Assembly: GCA_043800725.1 (NCBI GenBank) | Contig: JAZDMR010000024.1 | Coordinates: 1 to 53,838, forward strand | Source of the DNA: a bacterium | Lineage (GTDB): Bacteria; Patescibacteriota; Patescibacteriia; HK-STAS-PATE-3 | DNA length: 53,838 nucleotides | Reading direction: 5' to 3' | In this document: positions 1-10,293 of the stretch, one piece after another | How positions within the stretch are numbered: the first letter of the stretch is position 1 | Layout: each line of letters starts with the position of its first letter | Notes under the pieces: model-generated | Told to the model about the DNA's origin: nothing | Seen by the model: only the letters and a program-made list of their open reading frames with translations | The model's database searches: none | Program-made: the position numbers and the translations under genes

Positions 1-86
1 ACCCACTCTCCTGATCGCCTCCCCAAGCTGTCTGAGTCTTGCATATCAGCATTGTTTAGAAACTTCCTTAGTGTTTTTCTGTCTAT

Positions 87-115
87 ATTGTACCACTTAT
101 TATCTGGAATATCAA
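87..115 (-). promoter_or_regulatory. sigma70-type promoter pointing out of the left window edge
   Basis: Minus strand TTGATA-17 nt-TACAAT with extended -10 TG; shares ATAAGTGGTACAAT with the promoter at 7358-7386. Confidence 0.55.
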
Positions 116-165
116 CGTTCTGTTCAAACGAACAGGGCGGCAGGGCTTCGCTTACGGCTCGCGGG

Positions 166-205
166 CAAAAAGAACCCCTAATTGCACAGATGACAATTAG
201 GGGTT
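166..205 (-). terminator. intrinsic terminator after methyltransferase
   Basis: 12-bp stem AACCCCTAATTG (173-184)/CAATTAGGGGTT (194-205) followed by CTTTTT on the minus strand. Confidence 0.75.
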
Positions 206-1034
206 AGTGCCTCTTACGATGGTGAATCTTTCTCACCACTAAGAAGCCATCAATCTGCCGAAGAAATCCATTCCTCCCACGGATATAATCCAGTATCGAA
301 TCACGAATCTCGGCCGGAATGTCTTTCCAATTTGTGTTGAGAAGAAATTCCACAACCGAGATTACATCTTGCATAACGTCAGGATATGGCAGATGTAACT
401 TCGCTTTGACGCTGAACTTTTCAATCCGCAACGGCAATTGCTCGGCAATCTTTTGGAGCAGCGCCTCGGCGTCGTCAATGGTCAGAGAGTAATAGTCTCG
501 GCCCATGATTTTAGTCTTGAAGCGGGTTCTGAACTGGTGAATGTCGTCTTTTCCTCTGAGGACAATGACCAAGTGGCCGTCGGGTTTAAGGAGTTTTAAC
601 ATCCTGAGGTAAATCACCGGCAACCTGGCAATGTTATCTTTTGCCAGAGGCACGTGGGACGCCAAAATGATATCAAACAGCGTGGCGGTCGTGAAATTCT
701 CAAAGGTATCGCCGACGATATCCACGGACACGGTACGAGGGAAAAGATTTCTGGCACTACGCAGTTTTCCTGCTAAATCCTGGCTTGGTTCCAGAAGTGT
801 TGCGGATACCCCCTTGAGATCTCTCACCTTGCTTAGCGCTAGGCGCAGATATTCACCGGTGCCGCTGCCGATATCAAGCAAGGTCATCTTTTCTCTGACA
901 AGCAACCTAGACAGGATTTTCCCAAGAATTCCCGACGACTTTTCCTTTTCATCGGAGTAATTCAGGAAAATCACAAATGGCACTTCCTCGCCCGCGATGC
1001 CTTTACGATACTCAAAGCCAATTCTCTTTTTCAT
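204..1034 (-). CDS. class I SAM-dependent methyltransferase
   Basis: Motif I LLDIGSGTG, FDIILASH, LLKPDGHLVIV; start placed at ATG 1034 behind a GGAGGT SD. Confidence 0.85.
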   Translation of the reverse strand: MKKRIGFEYRKGIAGEEVPFVIFLNYSDEKEKSSGILGKILSRLLVREKMTLLDIGSGTGEYLRLALSKVRDLKGVSATLLEPSQDLAGKLRSARNLFPRTVSVDIVGDTFENFTTATLFDIILASHVPLAKDNIARLPVIYLRMLKLLKPDGHLVIVLRGKDDIHQFRTRFKTKIMGRDYYSLTIDDAEALLQKIAEQLPLRIEKFSVKAKLHLPYPDVMQDVISVVEFLLNTNWKDIPAEIRDSILDYIRGRNGFLRQIDGFLVVRKIHHRKRH

Positions 1035-1065
1035 GTTGTCATTTACCTCCGCTCTCGTAAGAGCA

Positions 1066-1106
1066 AAGAAAAAGGGGTTGCGCCATCCGCCTGACAACGC
1101 AACCCC
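1066..1106 (-). terminator. intrinsic terminator between radical SAM gene and methyltransferase
   Basis: Stem GGGGTTGCG (1074-1082)/CGCAACCCC (1098-1106) followed by TTTTTCTTT on the minus strand. Confidence 0.7.
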
Positions 1107-1118
1107 GGTGAAAAGAAG

Positions 1119-2213
1119 TTAAGGTGTCCGAATCCCATGGAGCTCCTCCTTGGCGAAGGTTAAGAACCACAGGCTTCGGTAATCCTCCCAGACAAGCGGT
1201 CTCATGTTGGTATGTCCGAAGATCCGCTCGAGAATCTGCCGAGCGTTTAGGTAGTACTCAAGACGATGTGCCTCAGGATCCCGCAAGGTTGTTTGGTGAT
1301 ACTTGTGCAGCTGCAATGTGTTGATGGTAGGGAACTTGTTAATACGTTCCCCAAGGCAGTTGAAGTGATACTCCATCACTCGCAACGGCTCCATCCCCAC
1401 AATGTAGGAGAAATTCACCTCGTGTCCTAAGCTCCGGGCGAAATCCATTAACTCACAAGCGTCCTGCAGACTGAGTGCCCTCTTGTCTTTTCTCAGCAGT
1501 TCGCGGCGTTCAAACGTCTCCAGCGAGAAGCAAATACCGAACGGCTGAATCTCGGTAACGCTTCTTAGCTGCTCTTGTGTCGCGATTTGCGAACCAAGAT
1601 AGAATATCTTCCCGGCGAATCGGTATTCCCGCAACACTTTCTTTAGTGTGATCAGGAAATGGCAAACCGCTTCGCCACTCTCATAACAGCCGGTCACTAC
1701 CGATATCTGGATCAGATGAGACAGGTCGGTCAAGCCGTACTTGGCCATCCAATCCTCGAAAAATTCCCTGAGATCAGAATCGCTTTTCAGACGCTTCCGG
1801 TCATAGGGAATTTGGTACGCCGTGTAGCAGAATTGGCAGCCGTGACACGATGTTCGAGAATTCGGGTTGATATTCAGCGACGATCCCTTTCTGCGCGGGT
1901 AGTGGGAATCGCAGATGTCCTCAGTTGGCCCGATTGCCTGACCGATAACTGTATTCTGCAAGAGCAGAGTGTTATCGACGATGACAAAGGGGCTGTCTTG
2001 GTTCACCGGCAGGGCGAAGTAGTAGTCAAGTTCGCCTCGTTGCTTGGCGTACTCGAACAACTTGCCGTCAGTTAGCCGGAAAGCCATCCGCATTCTGTTG
2101 TAATCGCACTCAAGATTAACGCCGTTGATATTGAGAGCGATGAAAAGAACGTCTTCCAGAGGTAAGTGATAACGCTCTGCAAGACGGGTCACGTACTCTA
2201 TGGTGAGCATCAC
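1119..2213 (-). CDS. radical SAM protein with non-canonical CX2CX2C motif (possibly NikJ/PolH-like)
   Basis: CHGCQFC (C123, C126, C129) followed by radical SAM-like barrel strands (ISVVTGC, FSLETF, YIVGME); start overlaps the upstream stop. Confidence 0.75.
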   Translation of the reverse strand: MMLTIEYVTRLAERYHLPLEDVLFIALNINGVNLECDYNRMRMAFRLTDGKLFEYAKQRGELDYYFALPVNQDSPFVIVDNTLLLQNTVIGQAIGPTEDICDSHYPRRKGSSLNINPNSRTSCHGCQFCYTAYQIPYDRKRLKSDSDLREFFEDWMAKYGLTDLSHLIQISVVTGCYESGEAVCHFLITLKKVLREYRFAGKIFYLGSQIATQEQLRSVTEIQPFGICFSLETFERRELLRKDKRALSLQDACELMDFARSLGHEVNFSYIVGMEPLRVMEYHFNCLGERINKFPTINTLQLHKYHQTTLRDPEAHRLEYYLNARQILERIFGHTNMRPLVWEDYRSLWFLTFAKEELHGIRTP

Positions 2214-3052
2214 TTACCTCCTTTTGGATTGGCGATGGCGTGAAGAAAACCGCTTTTCTTCTTGCAGACGATCAGGGTAGTGAGAACGGGCACAGCAATC
2301 GCGCCATGCTGTCCCACAATCTCCGAAATCCGCGCGAAGAATTTCTTGCGTTGCTCCTCAGGTACTTCCACGACCTTCGGGAAAGTGTTGAGGAGTTTTG
2401 GATACGTCTCGGCGCAGTAATTGTACACCGTGTAGTACTTGCGCAAGGCGACGGTGTAAAGCAGGGAGTTTTGAACCACTTCCTGCTCCCGGCGGTGGAG
2501 TTTGGTGAGCACTCCTTCATTCACCTCCGCAACGGATGACTCGTCAGGATATGCGTCCGGAAGGTACTCGCTGTAGGCCTTGTTCACCTCGGCGGTCACC
2601 GCCGAGTCCGAAAGAAAGAAGCTGTTCCAGACGAGCACCAGACTACCGGCGTCATCCAAGAGACCAAGAACCTTGCGGTGCTTGATACCTTCGTCGATCC
2701 AGTGGTAGGCCGTGAACGCCAGAATTGCGTCGAAACAATCCGACGACTCAAAACTCTCGAAGGTTCCTTCTAGAATCTCAACGTTCTGCAGTCCCTCGGT
2801 CTGTTTTCTAGCGATTGCCGCGAGATGACTGCCGGGTTCTAGGCCTACGATCCTGCCGCCGAGTTTGGCAAGTTCAACCGTGGCGATACCGCTGCCAGCA
2901 CCAATCTCGAGAAGTCGCGATGCGCTGTCGAGACCACACAGTTCCTTGATATCCGCGTAGAGTTGCGCAGGATATCCGGGACGAACCGAGTGGTATGTCT
3001 CGGCGAACACGTCAAACGACGCGTTGAAGATGTTTTTGCCTTTGAACATCAT
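2210..3052 (-). CDS. class I SAM-dependent methyltransferase
   Basis: Y..RPGYP, LLEIGAGSG, FDAILAFTAYHW; ATGA overlap with the upstream gene. Confidence 0.9.
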   Translation of the reverse strand: MMFKGKNIFNASFDVFAETYHSVRPGYPAQLYADIKELCGLDSASRLLEIGAGSGIATVELAKLGGRIVGLEPGSHLAAIARKQTEGLQNVEILEGTFESFESSDCFDAILAFTAYHWIDEGIKHRKVLGLLDDAGSLVLVWNSFFLSDSAVTAEVNKAYSEYLPDAYPDESSVAEVNEGVLTKLHRREQEVVQNSLLYTVALRKYYTVYNYCAETYPKLLNTFPKVVEVPEEQRKKFFARISEIVGQHGAIAVPVLTTLIVCKKKSGFLHAIANPKGGK

Positions 3053-3624
3053 AGTTGATCTCCTTGTGTTTGCCGCGCGAAGAACAGCATAAATCCGCTC
3101 TTGATCGCGGCGAGTTCCAGTGGACGGTGGAAATCACGACGGCCGCCGAGTTCAATCTTTGTAAGAATGAATCCGGGACCTCGTCCAAATTTCATTATAG
3201 CACGCTTCAGGCCGTCTTGACTATCTACCGCGCGTACGTATTGATAGCCAACTTCGCCCGCCAGCACGTCGAGTTTGGCGGTTTTGGACATTGATCGTTC
3301 CTCGCTGCACGAAGCATAAGCTCCGTTATCGAGGACAATGTGAAGCAAGTTTGTCGGCTGCTTGTGCCCGACAGTGACAGCGGATCCTAGGTTCATGAGG
3401 AGACTTGCGTCTCCATCAATCACCACCACTCTTTTTGTAAGTTGCGCCATAGCAAGCCCGAGTCCGATTGAAGACGCAAGCCCCATGGAACCGGGGACGT
3501 AGATGTTCCTCTCCGAATCGAATTTCTCGAAGATTTCTCGAGAGATCAATCCGGTGGTGGAAACAACCGCGTCTTGTGCGTCGATCGTTGTCATGATGAC
3601 TTCGATTGCTTCTTGTCTGTTCAT
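3049..3624 (-). CDS. ThDP-dependent decarboxylase beta subunit (sulfopyruvate/phosphonopyruvate decarboxylase, ComE-like)
   Basis: GSMGLASSIGLG and ThDP motif GDAS...LDN; ATG 3624 overlaps the alpha-subunit stop (ATGA). Confidence 0.85.
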   Translation of the reverse strand: MNRQEAIEVIMTTIDAQDAVVSTTGLISREIFEKFDSERNIYVPGSMGLASSIGLGLAMAQLTKRVVVIDGDASLLMNLGSAVTVGHKQPTNLLHIVLDNGAYASCSEERSMSKTAKLDVLAGEVGYQYVRAVDSQDGLKRAIMKFGRGPGFILTKIELGGRRDFHRPLELAAIKSGFMLFFARQTQGDQL

Positions 3625-4160
3625 CTGTGCCACCCCCTTTTGATAAGAAGGAAAGTCGGGAGCTCTGCCTTGCGCATCGTCTCAAACAGCGACCGCGTGA
3701 GATTTTCCAGATTTTGATTTCCTAAAACCTCAAACGGAAGGCCGAATGATTCGAGTAGGCGTTCGGTTGCCCGACCAGTGGTCAGGTGCTGCACGGCGTC
3801 TTCCCCTTCGCAACCGCGATAGGACACTACGAAAAAGATCGGCATTCTATAGGGGACGAGAAGAGACGCGATGTCGTTTGAAGCGGAGAAAAGACCGGAG
3901 TTCTGCATATAGATCACCGGGATTTTCCCGCCGAAGTACGCGCCGGCGGCTAGACCGACTGCTTCCGATTCTCGATTTGCGATCACGTGGATCATCGCGG
4001 CATCATCTTCAAAATTTTTGATGATGTGCCGCAGAACACCGCACGGGACTCCGGATGCGAAATTCACGCCGAGCTTCCGGAAAACTTCGTGAAGTAAATC
4101 GGCTTTCTCGCTCCGGTCGCCAACCAAGGAATTGAAGACACCCTTGTCGATTTGGCTCAT
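3621..4160 (-). CDS. ThDP-dependent decarboxylase alpha subunit (ComD-like, PYR domain)
   Basis: GVPC, RESEAVGLAAG, MQNSG, SYRG motifs; GGAGGT SD. Confidence 0.85.
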   Translation of the reverse strand: MSQIDKGVFNSLVGDRSEKADLLHEVFRKLGVNFASGVPCGVLRHIIKNFEDDAAMIHVIANRESEAVGLAAGAYFGGKIPVIYMQNSGLFSASNDIASLLVPYRMPIFFVVSYRGCEGEDAVQHLTTGRATERLLESFGLPFEVLGNQNLENLTRSLFETMRKAELPTFLLIKRGWHR

Positions 4161-4236
4161 GACTGGTTACCTCCAGCTTATTGTTTTATCAAAGAGCGAT
4201 ATTTCGCATCCTTGAGACCATCCCAAGGAATTCACT

Positions 4237-4250
4237 ACCTTAGCACTTAT
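4237..4250 (-). promoter_or_regulatory. putative extended -10 promoter of the decarboxylase operon
   Basis: ATAAGTGCTAAGGT on the minus strand, similar to ATAAGTGGTACAAT at 7358-7371; no good -35. Confidence 0.4.
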
Positions 4251-4322
4251 TGGTCTTTTTTTCCGGCCCGCTTTGGATAATAAACACGAAATCCCTAAAA
4301 TTCATCTTATTAATGGAATACT

Positions 4323-4349
4323 TGAAATATTTAAACATTTCGACATGTT
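4323..4349. promoter_or_regulatory. ArsR-type operator-like box, copy 1
   Basis: TGAAATATTTAAACATTTCGACATGTT, 23/27 identical to 7443-7469. Confidence 0.65.
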
Positions 4350-4417
4350 TATGCCAAATTATTAATCTTGGTTGATTTGCCGGTATGCCTTCAATTACCA
4401 AGACTATTTCCCGTCTG

Positions 4418-5473
4418 TTAAAAGACTTCATGACTGGTCTTTTGCAAAAGAAAACGCCATATCAACAATCCTGGTTCTGTTTCCCGGGCAACTGGTTCTT
4501 GAGATATCAGTTCAAGCCCTATCTTGCTAACCAGAATATTTTGAACAAACTCCGGTGTCCAAACTCTAATTATTTTTTCTTGGAAAATAACCAGATTAGA
4601 CCCCAGGAATCGTCCGCGCGAAACGGTCAAATCATTCGTTCCGCGCCCTTCAATTACGAACTGTCCCCCGATTTTCATTTTCTTGCGGATTTGATTAATT
4701 AAAAAGAAAGTTTTTGTGTCTGATAAATTCAATGTTCCGGGCGCATAAAACAAATCCACTGACTCGGGAATATCTTCATCAATCAGATTTTCTATTACCC
4801 TCGGGCATATCTTAATATGATCAGCAATATTGTTGTTAGCTTGATACGTAATTTTACCATAAGCTTTAACAATCAGTAGTTGGCAATCCCTTGTGAACAT
4901 ACTGGGAATCGAAGCTGGTGCGGCGCCGAATATCACCGCTGTTTGCCAATGGGGCAGATCCCGAGAATCCCGACCTTTTACAAGCACGACTTCTGATAAT
5001 TTTCCCAAATCCGGCATCCCGTCATCATAAGGCAACCAGGGCTTCAGATTACTGAATTGAACAGAGGGGTTTAAAAGTATAGCTTGTTCGTGGCTGTTTA
5101 AAAAATACTGCTCCTCCTTGTGCTGAAGCGACCCCAATGCATCGGCCCATGAAACCCAGACGTAATTCTGGTCATGATCAAATGAAAATCCCTCGCCATC
5201 CATCAGATAGTATAAAATTATCTTATCGACTTTTTCTCCGTCGGGTTCCGTTCCGGTTCGATTAACCTGTCCAAGTTGTGCGACAATGCGCGGGCTTATC
5301 ACGCCAACCTCTTCTCCGAGCTCTCTGACGGCCGCTTGTTCGGCTGATTCAAGGGGTCCAATGTGTCCTTTTGGCAGTGCCAACTTTCCATTCTTGGTAG
5401 TGAGACAGAGTAATTCAATCTGATTGTTTTTATTGCGGGTGATAACTCCGCCTGCGGAATTTACTATATGCAT
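4418..5473 (-). CDS. NUDIX hydrolase fused to a degenerate class I methyltransferase-like domain
   Basis: Full Nudix box GHIGPLESAEQAAVRELGEEVG; C-terminal SVDLFYA...KMKIGGQFVI resembles methyltransferase strands. Confidence 0.75.
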   Translation of the reverse strand: MHIVNSAGGVITRNKNNQIELLCLTTKNGKLALPKGHIGPLESAEQAAVRELGEEVGVISPRIVAQLGQVNRTGTEPDGEKVDKIILYYLMDGEGFSFDHDQNYVWVSWADALGSLQHKEEQYFLNSHEQAILLNPSVQFSNLKPWLPYDDGMPDLGKLSEVVLVKGRDSRDLPHWQTAVIFGAAPASIPSMFTRDCQLLIVKAYGKITYQANNNIADHIKICPRVIENLIDEDIPESVDLFYAPGTLNLSDTKTFFLINQIRKKMKIGGQFVIEGRGTNDLTVSRGRFLGSNLVIFQEKIIRVWTPEFVQNILVSKIGLELISQEPVARETEPGLLIWRFLLQKTSHEVF

Positions 5474-5488
5474 CTGTGTATTTGATTG

Positions 5489-6145
5489 TTAACTTTCAGC
5501 CATCGACTGTTTCAATTCAATATCGATTTGGTCTAAAAAACTGCGTAAATAAGCCGTCCTCTGACTGGCGATTTTTTTGCCGGTATCGGTATTCATTCCA
5601 GTCTCAATCCTCAACATGCGCGTAAAAATAAAATCTAAGCCATATCGCCTTTGATTCGGATTTCGTCTCCTACAAAAAGGGTCGTTGTCGTGAAAAAGCG
5701 GAATTTGCAATTGTCCTGTTGTAGCAAAAGCTCTCATAATTCCGATGGCTCCGATGGCATCAAGTCTGTCGGCATCCTGGATTATTTTCCCTTCAAGAAA
5801 CCCGACATTTCCTCCAAAGGTGTACGAACATTCCCTGATGGCGGCAGACACCTTGACGATTTTATTCGACGGATAATTGTTTATGCCCGAAAGTACTTTC
5901 TTGGCAAACTTTGCGCTCCTTATGGTGTCCGACCGCGCCCGAGGATCATTTTTTCTGGAGACGACTGAATCGTGGAACATTGCCGCGGGGATTAATATTT
6001 CCAAGTCCGTCCTTTCCTCAATTCCGATCTTTTCTGATATCTGTACGACTCTTTGCGTGTGATTGAAATCATGCGAAGCATCCGCAAAACGACTCTGGGC
6101 TTTTGCAATAAGTGACAGTTTTCTTTTTAGGCTTGTGGGTGCCAT
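5489..6145 (-). CDS. HD-domain phosphohydrolase (YedJ/YpgQ-like)
   Basis: HDFNH...HD...QDADRLDAIGAIGIMRAF. Confidence 0.9.
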   Translation of the reverse strand: MAPTSLKRKLSLIAKAQSRFADASHDFNHTQRVVQISEKIGIEERTDLEILIPAAMFHDSVVSRKNDPRARSDTIRSAKFAKKVLSGINNYPSNKIVKVSAAIRECSYTFGGNVGFLEGKIIQDADRLDAIGAIGIMRAFATTGQLQIPLFHDNDPFCRRRNPNQRRYGLDFIFTRMLRIETGMNTDTGKKIASQRTAYLRSFLDQIDIELKQSMAES

Positions 6146-6179
6146 GCTTCATGTTTTTAATATGCGCTAATTTATATAA

Positions 6180-7243
6180 CTTGGAGTCAAACATCTAGCG
6201 CAACGGATATGAGTATACTATCCGTATGCACACAACATCATACCGGCGGCTTACATCCGCCGAGCGCGAGGATATCAGCCGAGGCCTGGCGCAGAAAGAC
6301 AGTTTGTCGGCGATAGCGGATCGTTTAGGACGGAACGTGAGCACCATTTCCCGTGAGGTATGTTTCAACGGTGGAAAAAGCGGGTATCGCGCTCTTTTAG
6401 CCAGTCACCGTGCGCGAGCGAGCGCATCTTCTCGGAAACACGGTAAGAGTCGTTTGGCGCGTGAAGATCGTCTGCGGCAATATGTTCAGGAGAAGCTTGT
6501 AAAGCACTGGTCGCCCCGGGAAATCGTCAAACGGCTTAAAAAAGAGTATTCTGATGATATGACGATGCGGGTTTCACACGAAGCGATCTATCGATATATC
6601 TACGTACTGCCCCGCGGGTCCTTGAAACGGACACTGATCCAAGCCTTGAGGCAGGAACGGAAGTACCGCAGAACCAAGCGGAGGGGAGAGAATACCGGGG
6701 AAACACGGGGGAAAATCGCTGATATGCTCTCGATTGAAGAACGGCCAAAAGAAGTTGCCGACCGGACCGTTCCCGGCCACTGGGAAGGAGATCTTATCAT
6801 GGGCAAGTACAAACTAACGGCCTTAGGTACTCTGGTGGAGCGCATCACCCGCTACACGATCCTGGTGCCGCTTCAGGCGAAGGATGCGGTCAGCGTACGG
6901 AAAGCGTATGCCCGGGCACTGCGGTCTGTGCCTAAAGAGCTGGCGAAAACCCTCACCTATGATCAGGGAAAAGAGATGAGCGAACACAAACAGTTTACGA
7001 TTGATACCGGAATCCGGGTCTACTTCGCCCATCCCGGCTCTCCCTGGGAACGCGGTACGAATGAGAATACTAATGGTCTGATTCGCCAGTATTTTCCAAA
7101 GGGGACCGAGTTTGACACAGTGCCGGTCAGGGAAGTTAAACGCGTACAGCGGCAGCTCAATGACAGGCCGAGAGCGGCATTGGATTTCTCCAAACCCGAT
7201 GAGGTATTTAACAAACTTGTTGCGTTAAAAGTTTGAAACCAAG
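6180..7243 (+). mobile_element. IS30-family insertion sequence
   Basis: 25-bp terminal inverted repeats (6180-6204 and 7219-7243, 20/25 match), flanking AA dinucleotide as possible 2-bp target duplication, intact transposase. Confidence 0.9.
6226..7236 (+). CDS. IS30-family transposase
   Basis: N-terminal HTH (IADRLGRNVSTISRE), GHWEGD, TYDQGKE, PWERGTNENTNGLIRQYFPKG. Confidence 0.97.
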   Translation: MHTTSYRRLTSAEREDISRGLAQKDSLSAIADRLGRNVSTISREVCFNGGKSGYRALLASHRARASASSRKHGKSRLAREDRLRQYVQEKLVKHWSPREIVKRLKKEYSDDMTMRVSHEAIYRYIYVLPRGSLKRTLIQALRQERKYRRTKRRGENTGETRGKIADMLSIEERPKEVADRTVPGHWEGDLIMGKYKLTALGTLVERITRYTILVPLQAKDAVSVRKAYARALRSVPKELAKTLTYDQGKEMSEHKQFTIDTGIRVYFAHPGSPWERGTNENTNGLIRQYFPKGTEFDTVPVREVKRVQRQLNDRPRAALDFSKPDEVFNKLVALKV

Positions 7244-7357
7244 AACAAAATAGCAATTCCCATATCTCGGTTTGATCGCCACCTTTTGTGTCCATTCTAT
7301 AAAGAATGCCTAATTTGTCAATTTCAACTCAAACTCTGATATTCAAACTAGATTCAG

Positions 7358-7386
7358 ATTGTACCACTTATCAGCCAATATTCCAA
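7358..7386 (-). promoter_or_regulatory. sigma70-type promoter, probably the native promoter of the HD-NUDIX genes
   Basis: TTGGAA-17 nt-TACAAT with extended TG, now separated from the HD gene by IS30. Confidence 0.55.
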
Positions 7387-7442
7387 CACCAATTATGTTA
7401 AAAAGTAAAAGACTAATAATTAAGCATATATCACTTTGATTC

Positions 7443-7469
7443 TGAAATATCTAGATATTTCGATATGTT
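7443..7469. promoter_or_regulatory. ArsR-type operator-like box, copy 2
   Basis: TGAAATATCTAGATATTTCGATATGTT, contains perfect 18-bp palindrome 7444-7461. Confidence 0.65.
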
Positions 7470-7481
7470 ATTAATATAACT

Positions 7482-7739
7482 TTAAAGGGTAATTTGCTTA
7501 AGAAGCTTCGAGGTACTCAAGCTAGGTGAAATAGAATAAATCGTAAACCTGCTTTTACGCAATTCCTTAATATATCCCTCTCTTTTCAGCTTAGAAAGAT
7601 GGTATGAGACAGTGTTTTGAGATACCCCCAAATGATCGGCAATCTCATTAACGCAACATGATTTACTGTTCAATTGCTTAAGAATAGCCAGTCTCCGAAT
7701 ACTGCCTAGAGCTTTTAGGTTAGATACGATTTTTTCCAT
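7482..7739 (-). CDS. ArsR/SmtB-family winged-helix regulator
   Basis: LKALG..RRLAIL, CVNEIADHLGVSQNTVSYHLSKL. Confidence 0.9.
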   Translation of the reverse strand: MEKIVSNLKALGSIRRLAILKQLNSKSCCVNEIADHLGVSQNTVSYHLSKLKREGYIKELRKSRFTIYSISPSLSTSKLLKQITL

Positions 7740-7771
7740 AAAAAAATAGCGATCTCGATCGCCACAAGCTG

Positions 7772-7799
7772 ACTATATCACTCAAACAAACCTTGTCAA
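7772..7799 (-). promoter_or_regulatory. promoter of the ArsR gene
   Basis: TTGACA-16 nt-TATAGT with extended TG. Confidence 0.6.
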
Positions 7800-7820
7800 C
7801 ACTTAATCATTATTTGTATA

Positions 7821-7847
7821 CAACATATCTAGACAATTCGACAGGTC
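7821..7847. promoter_or_regulatory. ArsR-type operator-like box, copy 3 (autoregulatory position)
   Basis: CAACATATCTAGACAATTCGACAGGTC, 19/27 identical to copy 2. Confidence 0.55.
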
Positions 7848-7999
7848 AAACATTAATTAAAGCATCATGCAACCCAAGCCAGGGCCAGTGGCATCTTTTT
7901 TTTACGCTTAAAACGAGCCAAAAAAACCAAAGCAGAGCCTAAGGGACAATTAATTAAATATCGCGCATTGTCCCTCTGTTAGGGCTACGCTTAAGGCTC

Positions 8000-8027
8000 T
8001 TGACAGATTCTTTAGCAGGAATATACT
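8000..8027 (+). promoter_or_regulatory. sigma70-type promoter
   Basis: TTGACA-16 nt-TATACT upstream of ORF 8104. Confidence 0.6.
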
Positions 8028-8103
8028 CGAATCAGAAGGTGGCGATCTTCTCTCCCTGCGGGAGAGACGCCGCTTATTTTGTATAAACTAACCAACAAAG
8101 ACC

Positions 8104-8712
8104 ATGGACAACAATCAAACAAATCAGCAATCAGCCAACCCGAAGCAGACATCCCTCTTCCTGTGGGTTGTTTTGGCCGCTGTTGTACTGGCGGTGGGAG
8201 GGATGGTATGGTGGCAAATTTCTAAAAACACCAATGAAAATCAAAAAAACAATATAAATACCTTGGACTGGAAAACATTCGAAACTTCTTATGGAGGATA
8301 TATGCAATATTCATTTCAGTATCCTCCCTATCTCTCGCCACGTAAGAATTATCCAAGTGATTTGATCTCCGAAGGACCGAGGTCATGGATCGAGTCAGCG
8401 CAGAGTGGTTTTATTAGTGATAATTTTCTTCAGGAGAATGGGGGTGAATTGGAATATCTTCAAGGAGTTTCTCTAGAATTTGGAGGTTATTTTCGTGAGA
8501 TTTCAGTCGGCGAAGTGACCTATGGAAAAAATAACGCTTTAGAACGCCGTATTGAATATTCAGACACGCTCGACGGTCCGATGACGAAGATTGCCCTAGT
8601 GATATTGATGCCAACTTATGATCCGGGCTTTTTTCTTTTATTCGAAATTAGAGGCAAGAATACTACTGAGTTCAATCAAGACGTCTCTCGTTTGATCGAG
8701 ACGGTCCAATAA
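8104..8712 (+). CDS. hypothetical single-pass membrane-anchored surface protein
   Basis: N-terminal TM helix, Asn-rich linker, WKTF...YSFQYP motif of a kind common in CPR surface proteins. Confidence 0.7.
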   Translation: MDNNQTNQQSANPKQTSLFLWVVLAAVVLAVGGMVWWQISKNTNENQKNNINTLDWKTFETSYGGYMQYSFQYPPYLSPRKNYPSDLISEGPRSWIESAQSGFISDNFLQENGGELEYLQGVSLEFGGYFREISVGEVTYGKNNALERRIEYSDTLDGPMTKIALVILMPTYDPGFFLLFEIRGKNTTEFNQDVSRLIETVQ

Positions 8713-8748
8713 ACCCAAAACAGTACCTTAACAAACTGGAGGTAAGTC

Positions 8749-10293
8749 ATGAAGAAGTTTTTGATGTCTGGAGTTTGGACAATGGCATCCCTGTTCGCTT
8801 TCGTGGCTCATGCAGCAATGCCGATCAGCAGTCCGTGGCTTGCTGGGGATACCTGGCAAGGTGCTGGAAGTTGTGGGGGGTCATACTACCACGAAGGAGA
8901 CTATCATCACGGAGCAAGCGATTATGCGATCGACTTCAATCGTTACCCAGGTTGTACGAGTGATCGAGGGTGCCCACTTATAGCAGTTAAATCTGGAGTT
9001 GTCGTTTTCGCGGGTTCAAGCGGCGGATTCGGCAATTGTGTCAAGATTGATCACGGCTACTATAACGGAAAACAGACTACTACCTTTTATGCTCATCTGC
9101 TTAACGGAGGGCCCTTCGTGGTTCTCGGTGAACAGGTCGAACAAGGCTGTGTCGTCGGATTATGCGGTAATACAGGTGGAACTTCAACTGGCGAACATCT
9201 GCACTTCGAGGAACGGGAAAATAACCGGTCTGTGAGAATCAGTTCTATGGATTCATACAACTGGTGCGACTCACAATCCTGCGACGGCCATGTATTAACT
9301 TCGAAGAACGTAAAGCTCCTCGACCTCGCCTACGACCGCAACGGCGGCTCCTACTGGATCGGCAATCGTGAGTATCAGATGTGGGATCTGACCCAGGCTC
9401 GGTCCGCGAACCCAAACCATCCCTGGTACAATGCCTGGAACCAGAACGATCTCTACCGCTCAGACAAGACTCCTAAGAACTGCGTCATCCAGCACTTGAA
9501 CGGCGGGTATTGGTGGGATTCGGCCATTGTCTACGACGGCCTGGGAGGAGCCAGACGAGCCTATGTCCTGCATTCCGGATTCTGGATTAATTGGACTAAC
9601 AATGGCGGGCCTCTTTGTTGGCTGGGCATGCCTGTAACGGACGAATACAGCCAAGGGACAGGGAAGGCGCGTCAGGACTTTCAGCGAGGCTACTTTTATT
9701 ACAACCAGGGCGCCAATCCGCAGATCTCGTTTAACCACTATCCGGTTTGCGCTCCGGGCATGACCGCCTCAGGCTGGAATCCTCGGGTCAGCTACCGCCT
9801 AGCCGACATCTACGCTTCGAGAAGCAACCCTCGCAGCTACTGGGGCGAAGCCAGCCAGTTCGCCTACAAAACCGGCTCGGTCTGGCGCCAGCGCTTTCAG
9901 TCTGGACGGACCATTGAAGTGCAGGATACCTACAACCAGAACTTTGGCGGTGAAAACCCCGACCCCAGCATCGACTTGGGAAATGATGGAGAAGAGAAAA
10001 ACACTCCCTCTCTCCAGCCTTTCTCACTCAAGGTCTTACCTAACCCCATGACTGCTGATTGCACGATCTTGCTGGATCTGTCCGCGCCTCAAACCGTGTC
10101 GCTGTCGGTCTTTGATGTGTCCGGACGGCGAATCCGACTTCTCGCCCCACTTGCCTTCCGTCTTCCTGGCCAGCATACCCTGACCTGGGACGGCCGGGAC
10201 GAGAACGGCCGCTTAAGCCCCACGGGCATCTACTATCTCCGTCTGGTCACTGCCAATGAACGGCTGACCCGGCCGATCACGGTGATACGGTGA
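8749..10293 (+). CDS. secreted M23 metallopeptidase with LGFP-like repeat and C-terminal FlgD-Ig/T9SS type-A-like domain
   Basis: Signal peptide; H....YAIDF, YAHL, STGEHLHFE; LGMPVTDE; PNP...VFDVSGRRIR...WDGRDENG...TGIYY. Confidence 0.85.
   Translation: MKKFLMSGVWTMASLFAFVAHAAMPISSPWLAGDTWQGAGSCGGSYYHEGDYHHGASDYAIDFNRYPGCTSDRGCPLIAVKSGVVVFAGSSGGFGNCVKIDHGYYNGKQTTTFYAHLLNGGPFVVLGEQVEQGCVVGLCGNTGGTSTGEHLHFEERENNRSVRISSMDSYNWCDSQSCDGHVLTSKNVKLLDLAYDRNGGSYWIGNREYQMWDLTQARSANPNHPWYNAWNQNDLYRSDKTPKNCVIQHLNGGYWWDSAIVYDGLGGARRAYVLHSGFWINWTNNGGPLCWLGMPVTDEYSQGTGKARQDFQRGYFYYNQGANPQISFNHYPVCAPGMTASGWNPRVSYRLADIYASRSNPRSYWGEASQFAYKTGSVWRQRFQSGRTIEVQDTYNQNFGGENPDPSIDLGNDGEEKNTPSLQPFSLKVLPNPMTADCTILLDLSAPQTVSLSVFDVSGRRIRLLAPLAFRLPGQHTLTWDGRDENGRLSPTGIYYLRLVTANERLTRPITVIR

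Follow-up and report, generated by a model that had tools for sequence, protein, structure and literature searches.

The left end of a 53,838-nt contig from a bacterium of the candidate phyla radiation (CPR; contig JAZDMR010000024.1) carries a horizontally acquired, self-contained mobile block of genes at positions 163–4270. The contig, referred to in its full length as the window, corresponds in full to C15 in the assembly of the host genome G000 (1.15 Mb, 41 contigs, 91.8% complete). The block, or cassette, encodes two subunits of a thiamine diphosphate (ThDP) enzyme resembling ComD and ComE, a methyltransferase (MT1), a protein with the fold of radical S-adenosylmethionine (SAM) enzymes (rSAM) and a second methyltransferase (MT2). 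Its gene content and order, conservation, mobility, folds and cofactor motifs point to a radical SAM/ThDP/methyltransferase operon that would make or alter a small acid, and the region as a whole is read as a mosaic of three units: a host ArsR regulator, a host operon of an HD-domain gene and a Nudix–methyltransferase fusion gene (HD and Nudix-MT), and the acquired cassette. These two readings are held jointly, with moderate confidence. An earlier note on this sequence had joined all of the genes into one ArsR-controlled pathway. The features of the cassette are as follows.

163–4270, minus strand: whole mobile cassette (promoter, leader, ComD, ComE, MT1, rSAM, terminator, MT2, terminator), recovered as one blastn block.
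4161–4262, minus strand: cassette promoter and leader of ~70 nt with a conserved CTTTGA(C/T)AA motif, from the upstream regions of 33 distinct loci.
3621–4160, minus strand: putative ThDP decarboxylase alpha subunit (PYR domain), ComD/RhiE-like (TIGR03845, 109.1 bits, cut-off 147.95; RhiE 9IZ3_A, E = 2.1e-19).
3049–3633, minus strand: putative ThDP decarboxylase beta subunit (PP domain), ComE/RhiF-like (TIGR03297, 157.6 bits, and TIGR03846, 136.3 bits, cut-off 221.5, both below cut-off; RhiF 9IZ3_B, E = 9.6e-29).
2210–3052, minus strand: MT1, putative small-molecule carboxyl-type methyltransferase, like HvrF and trans-aconitate methyltransferases (profile against the Protein Data Bank (PDB), AF2 model and Foldseek).
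1119–2213, minus strand: rSAM, radical-SAM-fold protein with CxGCxFC at C123/C126/C129 and an extra N-terminal domain of ~110 aa; the start is probably the ATG at 2210.
1074–1106, minus strand: intrinsic-terminator-like hairpin between rSAM and MT2 (14 pairs, 8 of them G-C, followed by a T run).
204–1034, minus strand: MT2, optional second class I methyltransferase, weakly BioC-like (PF13489, E = 8e-9; TIGR02072, E = 2e-4).
173–205, minus strand: terminator-like hairpin that follows MT2 and ends the cassette (13 pairs).

The block is shared at the DNA level with three contigs that are otherwise unrelated (L021, 95.2% identity; L022, 87.6%; L025, 86.9%), with its ends at 163/166 and 4269/4270. 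The GC content is 0.519 for positions 1074–4262, compared with 0.448 for 8000–53838. The flanks differ in every locus, with tRNA genes just upstream in L001 and L012 and an IS30 element in L003. Among 60 relatives searched, two belonging to the same family and 58 to the same class, with a completeness of 90% or more for almost all, none yielded the rSAM gene. A pattern scan of one genome per species (185,579 species) placed it in only 13 loci; their labels are Patescibacteria, Paceibacterota, Komeilibacteria, Saccharibacteria or, for two metagenome-assembled genomes, Gammaproteobacteria. The CPR origin proposed in the earlier note fits both the 1.15 Mb genome and the Patescibacteria and Paceibacterota labels of these homologues. 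Because CPR bacteria have minimal biosynthetic capacity of their own, a compact mobile operon for small-molecule chemistry likely matters for dealing with hosts or competitors.

Within the leader the motif CTTTGACAA is near-invariant and lies 25–35 nt ahead of the start codon, and the leader may act as a portable expression signal for mobile cassettes. An Rfam search of the leader (E up to 10) gave no match. A riboswitch was considered and dropped, RNAalifold on 21 leaders having returned no consensus structure and the hairpins seen by eye being clade-specific. One locus (L010:5386–5483) has a second copy of the promoter and leader (98 nt, 88% identity) ahead of two other radical SAM genes, one of which matches TIGR04470 ('radical SAM mobile pair protein B') at E = 4e-65, below the cut-off of that model. 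Downstream of the leader, ComD and ComE, ComE and MT1, and MT1 and rSAM overlap by 1–13 nt depending on the start codon chosen, confirming the overlapping stop and start codons reported earlier. The start codon of MT2 is probably the ATG at 1034, which follows a GGAGG, rather than the TTG at 1097.

Conservation was assessed in 92 fetched loci (13 from genomes and 79 from metagenomes), which reduce to 75 distinct loci; ComD, ComE and MT1 were counted in the 44 of these whose sequence extends 2.1 kb or more upstream of rSAM, and all three are colinear with rSAM in 28. Of the 40 distinct loci that have 1 kb or more of downstream sequence, 15 carry a full-length MT2, and L001 and L010 retain remnants of it only, and three loci (L026, at 7245–8000, L027 and L029) have an extra UbiE/TehB/TPMT-type methyltransferase gene (~250 aa) between MT1 and rSAM. 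HD, Nudix-MT and ArsR lie beside the rSAM gene in none of the 75 distinct loci. The earlier note would have abandoned its cluster had the homologues been scattered and never co-occurring. The rSAM, ComDE-like and MT1 genes do co-occur strongly, but HD, Nudix-MT and ArsR never join them.

Relatives in which rSAM has ~55% identity or less are organized around a different ThDP enzyme, a phosphoketolase-family protein of ~700 aa (PF09364 and PF03894) present in 25 of 26 loci (plasmids included, not de-duplicated). Homologues of rSAM occur on 39 plasmids at 28–34% identity (30 from Clostridium, five from Streptomyces, three from Nocardia and one from Mycobacterium), and the Clostridium plasmids among the matches listed are all C. 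perfringens plasmids of 70–77 kb. These phosphoketolase-type loci also encode a class I methyltransferase (20/26), a HAD hydrolase (14/26) and variable extras, including YrdC/Sua5-like, creatininase-family, enolase-C-like, phosphoribosyltransferase, GGDEF and further radical SAM genes, and large serine recombinases adjoin four of them. Because the combination recurs with two unrelated ThDP enzymes, gene content suggests an invariant triad of an rSAM-like protein, a ThDP enzyme and a class I methyltransferase, in which the ThDP enzyme has been non-orthologously replaced. The 315-aa rSAM of L010 and the 318-aa rSAM of the phosphoketolase-type clusters have no significant similarity to one another.

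The radical SAM assignment made in the earlier note is weak by sequence (PF04055, 16.6 bits against a cut-off of 29.5, E = 0.0096), with some family members carrying a precomputed PF04055 match, but it holds at the level of fold. An AF2 model of rSAM (pLDDT 84.9, pTM 0.86) has 72 Foldseek matches in the PDB at E ≤ 0.001, and all chains among the ~40 matches listed are radical SAM enzymes, led by lipoyl synthase (TMq 0.45) and followed by biotin synthase and HydE, with TM scores of only 0.37–0.47. The modelled structure is a partial TIM-barrel radical SAM core. No NCBIfam match was found for rSAM, nor any PDB sequence match by profile at E ≤ 1. The cysteine spacing CX2CX2C is invariant in 27 of 27 aligned relatives across both architectures and departs from the canonical CX3CX2C; the last two cysteines and the aromatic residue fit the usual CxFC, and the first cysteine is one residue closer. 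Nine or more arginines are conserved, and because many are invariant the protein would be suited to an anionic substrate.

Among 1.84 billion representatives, 299 clusters (50% identity) were assigned to the rSAM family at E ≤ 0.001, of which 90 reach E ≤ 1e-30. An exhaustive profile search found three remote clusters (P0146, P0148 and P0168; 522–531 aa) in which a GrpB domain (PF04229, E = 6e-28 to 1e-42) is fused N-terminally to rSAM, and this fusion may point to a substrate linked to a nucleotide. No fused forms came from a word-index search among longer proteins, which is weak evidence. Named relatives, including ten remote ones, are all annotated 'hypothetical'. The family has an invariant non-canonical cysteine motif and neither a Pfam-specific model, an NCBIfam model nor a solved sequence relative. 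PADLOC 2.0 gave no match for rSAM, ComD, ComE or HD; MT1 and MT2 match only the methyltransferase domain of mad2, and ArsR matches generic winged helix-turn-helix (wHTH) models. The full-text literature, searched at the level of listings and abstracts (supplementary gene tables could hold more), yielded no paper on a sulfopyruvate decarboxylase, radical SAM and methyltransferase cluster, on phosphoketolase with radical SAM, or on Patescibacteria with phosphonopyruvate decarboxylase. The impression recorded earlier, that no described pathway has this radical SAM/ThDP/methyltransferase set, thus agrees with the literature, NCBIfam (for rSAM) and PADLOC.

The ThDP pair reaches the family models PF02776 (27.3 bits, cut-off 26.8) and PF02775 (42.7 bits, cut-off 21.9). 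Against TIGR03297 the two subunits score 109.2 and 157.6 bits, compared with a cut-off of 312.5, each covering only half of this single-chain model. The ComE-like subunit has a GDA-X27-N cofactor motif at residues 74–103 (G74-D75-A76 ... N103), compared with GDG-X24–27-N.

MT1 matches HvrF (9E72, E = 2.9e-16, positions 11–267) and yeast Tmt1 (3G5T, E = 1.5e-7) by profile, and Foldseek with its AF2 model (pLDDT 85.7) returned 9E72 as the top match (TM 0.69/0.77). MT1 also has weak NCBIfam matches (E = 6e-8 to 2e-6) to methyltransferases of the Erm, KsgA and protein isoaspartate types, which would accord with methyltransferases and rSAM acting on a macromolecule (rRNA, tRNA or protein), with the ThDP enzyme as unrelated baggage. 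This is scarcely credible: the Erm- and KsgA-type matches cover the SAM-binding core only whereas the best full-length matches are small-molecule enzymes, and the ThDP genes overlap MT1 translationally and are kept in 28 of 44 loci. The substitution of a ThDP enzyme of another family in the remote clusters likewise argues for a shared small-molecule chemistry.

For that chemistry we infer a substrate class, an order of steps and a product from the sequences and models. The ComDE/RhiEF-type heteromeric ThDP enzyme would decarboxylate a pyruvate bearing an anionic group at C3 (sulfonate, phosphonate or carboxylate), or form a C2–ThDP adduct from such a pyruvate. The radical-SAM-fold enzyme, with its CxxCxxC motif and many invariant arginines, would perform a radical step on the anionic intermediate, and MT1, of the HvrF/trans-aconitate type, would methylate the intermediate, probably at a carboxylate, joined in some versions by MT2. 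The outcome would be a small methylated acid, made or detoxified as an accessory trait.

A classical phosphonate pathway would supply one such substrate, with phosphoenolpyruvate (PEP) mutase forming phosphonopyruvate, decarboxylation by the ComDE/RhiEF-like enzyme, and tailoring by rSAM and methyltransferase in the manner of Fom3 and HvrF. The closest solved relatives of two of the parts come from phosphonate clusters (RhiEF from rhizocticin, HvrF from pantaphos), and the best NCBIfam match of the ComE-like subunit is the phosphonopyruvate decarboxylase model. PEP mutase, the one looked for here among the enzymes that the earlier note proposed to seek beyond base 1, did not turn up anywhere in the host genome: PF13714 was not found in G000 (91.8% complete) nor in four of the five other cassette genomes, nor is there a PEP mutase in the flanks of any clustered cassette locus. 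Because five of the six cassette genomes yielded none, the classical route is very unlikely. The sixth genome (G064) does have one, on a contig other than that of the cassette (locus L020, C5:63596–67366). There a fusion of cytidylyltransferase and PEP mutase (441 aa, with an EDKxxxxxNS motif) is encoded next to a 401-aa phosphonopyruvate decarboxylase of the single-chain type and a glycosyltransferase. This is a separate, ordinary phosphonate locus with its own decarboxylase.

Alternatively, the cassette could be catabolic or protective, destroying or masking by decarboxylation and methyl-esterification an exogenous anionic 2-oxo-acid antimetabolite (a sulfonate or phosphonate) acquired from the environment or from a host organism. 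Trans-aconitate methyltransferases, near relatives of MT1, are regarded as detoxifying enzymes. The cassette is short, mobile and rare, like resistance cassettes, and a host dehydrogenase of the Ldh_2 family, encoded on C8, could make sulfopyruvate from sulfolactate. HvrF, an O-methyltransferase of unclear role, is discussed as possibly a resistance enzyme against an unwanted isomer (10.1101/2022.11.22.517531). However, a radical SAM enzyme would be an unusual and costly component for simple detoxification, ComA was not found in the host genome, and the Ldh_2 gene is on another contig and belongs to a broad family with many other substrates. The ABC exporter gene directly upstream of the cassette in L009 fits product export equally well. 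A catabolic or protective cassette in place of a biosynthetic one is considered quite unlikely.

A bolder extension of the small-acid reading is that the CxxCxxC radical-SAM-fold family and its ThDP partner, whether ComDE- or phosphoketolase-like, share an undescribed radical/carbanion chemistry, in its boldest form with the radical enzyme making a carbon–phosphorus (C–P), carbon–sulfur (C–S) or carbon–arsenic (C–As) bond. We regard this as a long shot. If true, formation of such a bond by a radical enzyme would yield a phosphonate- or sulfonate-like acid without the help of PEP mutase. A Ppd-like decarboxylase and an HvrF-like methyltransferase would then process this acid, and the presence of two phosphonate-like parts would be explained even though five of the six cassette genomes yielded no PEP mutase.

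To the right of the cassette lie the two host units, an insertion sequence and three operator-like boxes.

7821–7847, minus strand: operator-like box upstream of ArsR, the most diverged copy of the repeat family (2 mismatches to the pattern).
7482–7739, minus strand: ArsR/SmtB-family winged-helix regulator, 85 aa (PF01022, E = 1.8e-16, 60.2 bits, cut-off 22; NF033788, 68.8 bits, cut-off 55).
7443–7469, minus strand: operator-like box, the best copy, 13 nt past the ArsR stop codon.
7294–7321, minus strand: promoter-like site TTGACA-16-TAGAAT (11/12 matches).
6178–7243, plus strand: polymorphic IS30-family insertion sequence (transposase 6226–7236; NF033563, E = 6.4e-91, 304.8 bits, cut-off 80).
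5489–6145, minus strand: HD-domain phosphohydrolase, YedJ/PRK10119-like (PF01966, 28.8 bits; NF007515, 148 bits, below the cut-off of 286).
4418–5473, minus strand: Nudix hydrolase fused to a divergent class I methyltransferase-fold domain (PF00293, 47.2 bits, cut-off 21.1, residues 9–112).
4323–4349, minus strand: operator-like box, a variant copy of the repeat family between Nudix-MT and the cassette and outside the latter, whose DNA homology ends at 4270.

The gene identities given in the earlier note agree with these matches (NF033788 for ArsR, PF01966 for HD and PF00293 for Nudix), as they do for the ComD-like, ComE-like and methyltransferase genes. The eight minus-strand open reading frames it listed are likewise present, but they do not form one contiguous, co-oriented run, since the plus-strand IS30 transposase gene lies between ArsR and HD. 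The IS30 element has inverted repeats at 6180–6204 and 7219–7243 (25 nt, 80% complementary) and is single-copy in the assembly. One contig of run X2, from another groundwater metagenome, joins position 6177 to 7244 and so skips exactly 1066 nt (6178–7243); because of this element-free contig the insertion is considered polymorphic and probably recent. In the IS-free allele the promoter-like site at 7294–7321 would sit ~82 nt before the HD start codon (by coordinate arithmetic), and it is probably the original HD promoter, now severed from its gene by IS30.

The Nudix half of Nudix-MT has the box GHIGPLESAEQAAVRELGEEVGV in its translation, the Nudix consensus being GX5EX7REUXEEXGU. The C-terminal half gave no Pfam match, and the fusion proposed earlier is borne out there at the level of structure: residues 135–351 (~215 residues) of the Atlas structure have TM scores of 0.72–0.75 to TehB/TPMT-type methyltransferases. 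Of 300 genomes from the class, only G002 and G242 yielded a full-length homologue of Nudix-MT. Each has an HD homologue (51–55% identity) directly upstream on the same strand, and G002 gave no match to rSAM although it has the pair. By this gene context HD and Nudix-MT are an independent, conserved two-gene module; the GC content of the HD–Nudix stretch is 0.435.

Metal sites known in ArsR/SmtB regulators are a CXC in helix 3 or a site in helix 5; the translation of the ArsR protein shows only a Cys-Cys pair (SCCVNE) ahead of the recognition helix. The box at 7821–7847 lies ~22 nt upstream of the −35 element of a promoter at 7799–7772. The box pattern has three matches in the window compared with none expected in 100 shuffles, the pattern having been derived from these same copies. 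Further, independent copies that differ from the consensus at one position at most lie on host contigs C8, C20 and C37; the names of the genes beside them were read from translations rather than from family searches. The C8 copy (25 nt exactly matching 7443–7469) precedes a 137-aa Nudix gene in the stretch C8:151284–151739, the C20 copy (C20:3884–3908) lies between divergent thioredoxin-like and LOG-like genes, and the C37 copy (C37:4555–4579) precedes a gene with no assigned name and a P-type ATPase gene. An ArsR paralogue, 46% identical, is encoded at C8:94582–94830, within a region (C8:94477–94882) that has the box variant AACATTTCGACATTTCGAGAAATCT on both sides; an arginyl-tRNA synthetase-like gene comes after the paralogue. 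Because of the copies on C8, C20 and C37 and those around the paralogue, the boxes are recognized as a genome-wide operator family of small wHTH regulators. The ArsR of the window may bind them and exert control through them, and the copies on the three other contigs may outline its regulon.

These boxes bear directly on the pathway put forward in the earlier note, a single ArsR-repressed regulon of eight genes for a nucleotide-derived small molecule, in which HD and Nudix would trim a nucleotide handle. Related boxes do precede ArsR, the pre-insertion HD operon and the cassette; that note had seen one such box before three of its units. Phosphoketolase-type relatives carry the phosphoribosyltransferase, YrdC/Sua5-like, creatininase-family and HAD genes listed above, the Streptomyces version has Nudix genes, and the Nocardia version has a nucleoside hydrolase gene and pyrF; the three GrpB-fused relatives point in the same direction, as do Nudix genes near the cassette in two further independent loci. 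However, the boxes all lie in host DNA, the nearest of them 53 nt beyond the cassette boundary, and further copies stand ahead of unrelated genes on other host contigs. The cassette has a foreign GC content and brings along its own promoter and terminators, HD, Nudix-MT and ArsR accompany rSAM in no distinct locus of the census, the HD–Nudix-MT pair of G002 is found without an rSAM match, and IS30 cuts ArsR off from HD. The single regulon is therefore considered unlikely. The gene neighbourhood of one genome suggested it, and comparison across genomes does not support it.

Several observations weigh against the three-unit mosaic and the small-acid operon. The box at 4323–4349 lies between Nudix-MT and the cassette promoter, such that the cassette may be locally co-regulated with host genes, and the Nudix genes in the two further independent loci (L005/L049 and L009/L037) are within ~2.5 kb of the cassette, which weakly favours a link to nucleotide hydrolases. 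The ComDE-like arrangement is missing in 16 of the 44 loci, namely 14 without ComDE, L005 with truncated ComD and ComE pieces, and L078 with MT1 but no ComDE. In the 14 ComDE-less loci rSAM is at or below ~55% identity, and most of these are of the phosphoketolase type, with neither ThDP type in L064. The ThDP subunits fall below the curated cut-offs of the sulfopyruvate and phosphonopyruvate decarboxylase models. Finally, the rSAM motif spacing is non-canonical, the Pfam cut-off is not reached, and SAM cleavage is predicted from the fold.

Outside these units, a further gene runs off the left end of the contig.

1–115, minus strand: further gene, not part of the cassette, with a promoter-like site at 115–87 (TTGATA-17-TACAAT, 10/12 matches) and an ATG at ~52.

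The earlier note had seen this promoter as a possible sign that the cluster continues leftwards; the site is there, but it serves a separate gene. No contig-end overlap extends the window to the left. A public contig of run X1 carries the first 8200 bases of the window at its own positions 2045–10244, and so holds 2,044 nt to the left of base 1, and contigs of runs X2 and X3 reach 228–240 nt past base 1. A 514-aa secreted-looking protein with an HxH metallopeptidase-like stretch is encoded at 8749–10293 (plus strand) in DNA of raised GC content (0.54 at 9001–10000), and its C-terminal segment may resemble a gliding/T9SS-type sorting domain. This is odd for a CPR genome. Rfam over the whole window found nothing beyond two tRNAs.

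Among known systems, the ThDP pair is closest to RhiE/RhiF of rhizocticin biosynthesis (PDB 9IZ3/9IZ4) and ComD/ComE of coenzyme M biosynthesis, sharing with them two small PYR and PP subunits, overlapping genes and a ThDP–Mg motif. To our knowledge neither pathway has an rSAM-fold protein or an HvrF-like methyltransferase as a partner. RhiEF is described as a split phosphonopyruvate decarboxylase (PMC12141560). The cassette differs from both systems in that its pair scores under the equivalog cut-offs and in that no PEP mutase was found in five of the six cassette genomes and no ComA in the host genome.

For MT1 the best full-length match by profile and by fold is HvrF of the pantaphos (HiVir) cluster of Pantoea ananatis, crystallised with pantaphos (PDB 9E72), followed by trans-aconitate methyltransferases (3G5T and 2P35). 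All of these are small-molecule enzymes acting on polyanionic acids, although HvrF and MT1 are only 18–19% identical in structural alignment, and the PEP mutase, phosphonomethylmalate synthase and dehydratase subunits of the hvr cluster are absent from the cassette.

In the fosfomycin pathway a radical SAM step takes place on a nucleotide-tagged anionic C2/C3 acid and the tag is later hydrolysed (Fom1 cytidylyltransferase, Fom3 radical SAM enzyme, FomD hydrolase); here, Nudix/HD and the GrpB fusions would take the analogous roles. Unlike Fom3, which is a class B radical SAM enzyme dependent on cobalamin, rSAM has no cobalamin domain by Pfam; the cassette encodes no nucleotidyltransferase, and HD and Nudix are not conserved with it.

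The phosphoketolase-type clusters, found on C. perfringens plasmids of the pCPF5603 type, on Nocardia, Mycobacterium and Streptomyces plasmids and on metagenome contigs, have the rSAM family in common with the cassette (28–34% identity for plasmids, 44–55% for metagenomes), with an identical CxGCxFC motif. They differ in their 700-aa XFP-family ThDP enzyme, which is not ComDE-like, and in their extra genes, and are annotated as hypothetical or by family name only. What they share with the cassette is that rSAM has a ThDP enzyme and a methyltransferase of class I as its neighbours. The rSAM–ThDP pairing thus recurs with two ThDP families, both in CPR cassettes and on plasmids from cultured bacteria, which suggests that the two enzymes are partners in a way not recognised so far.

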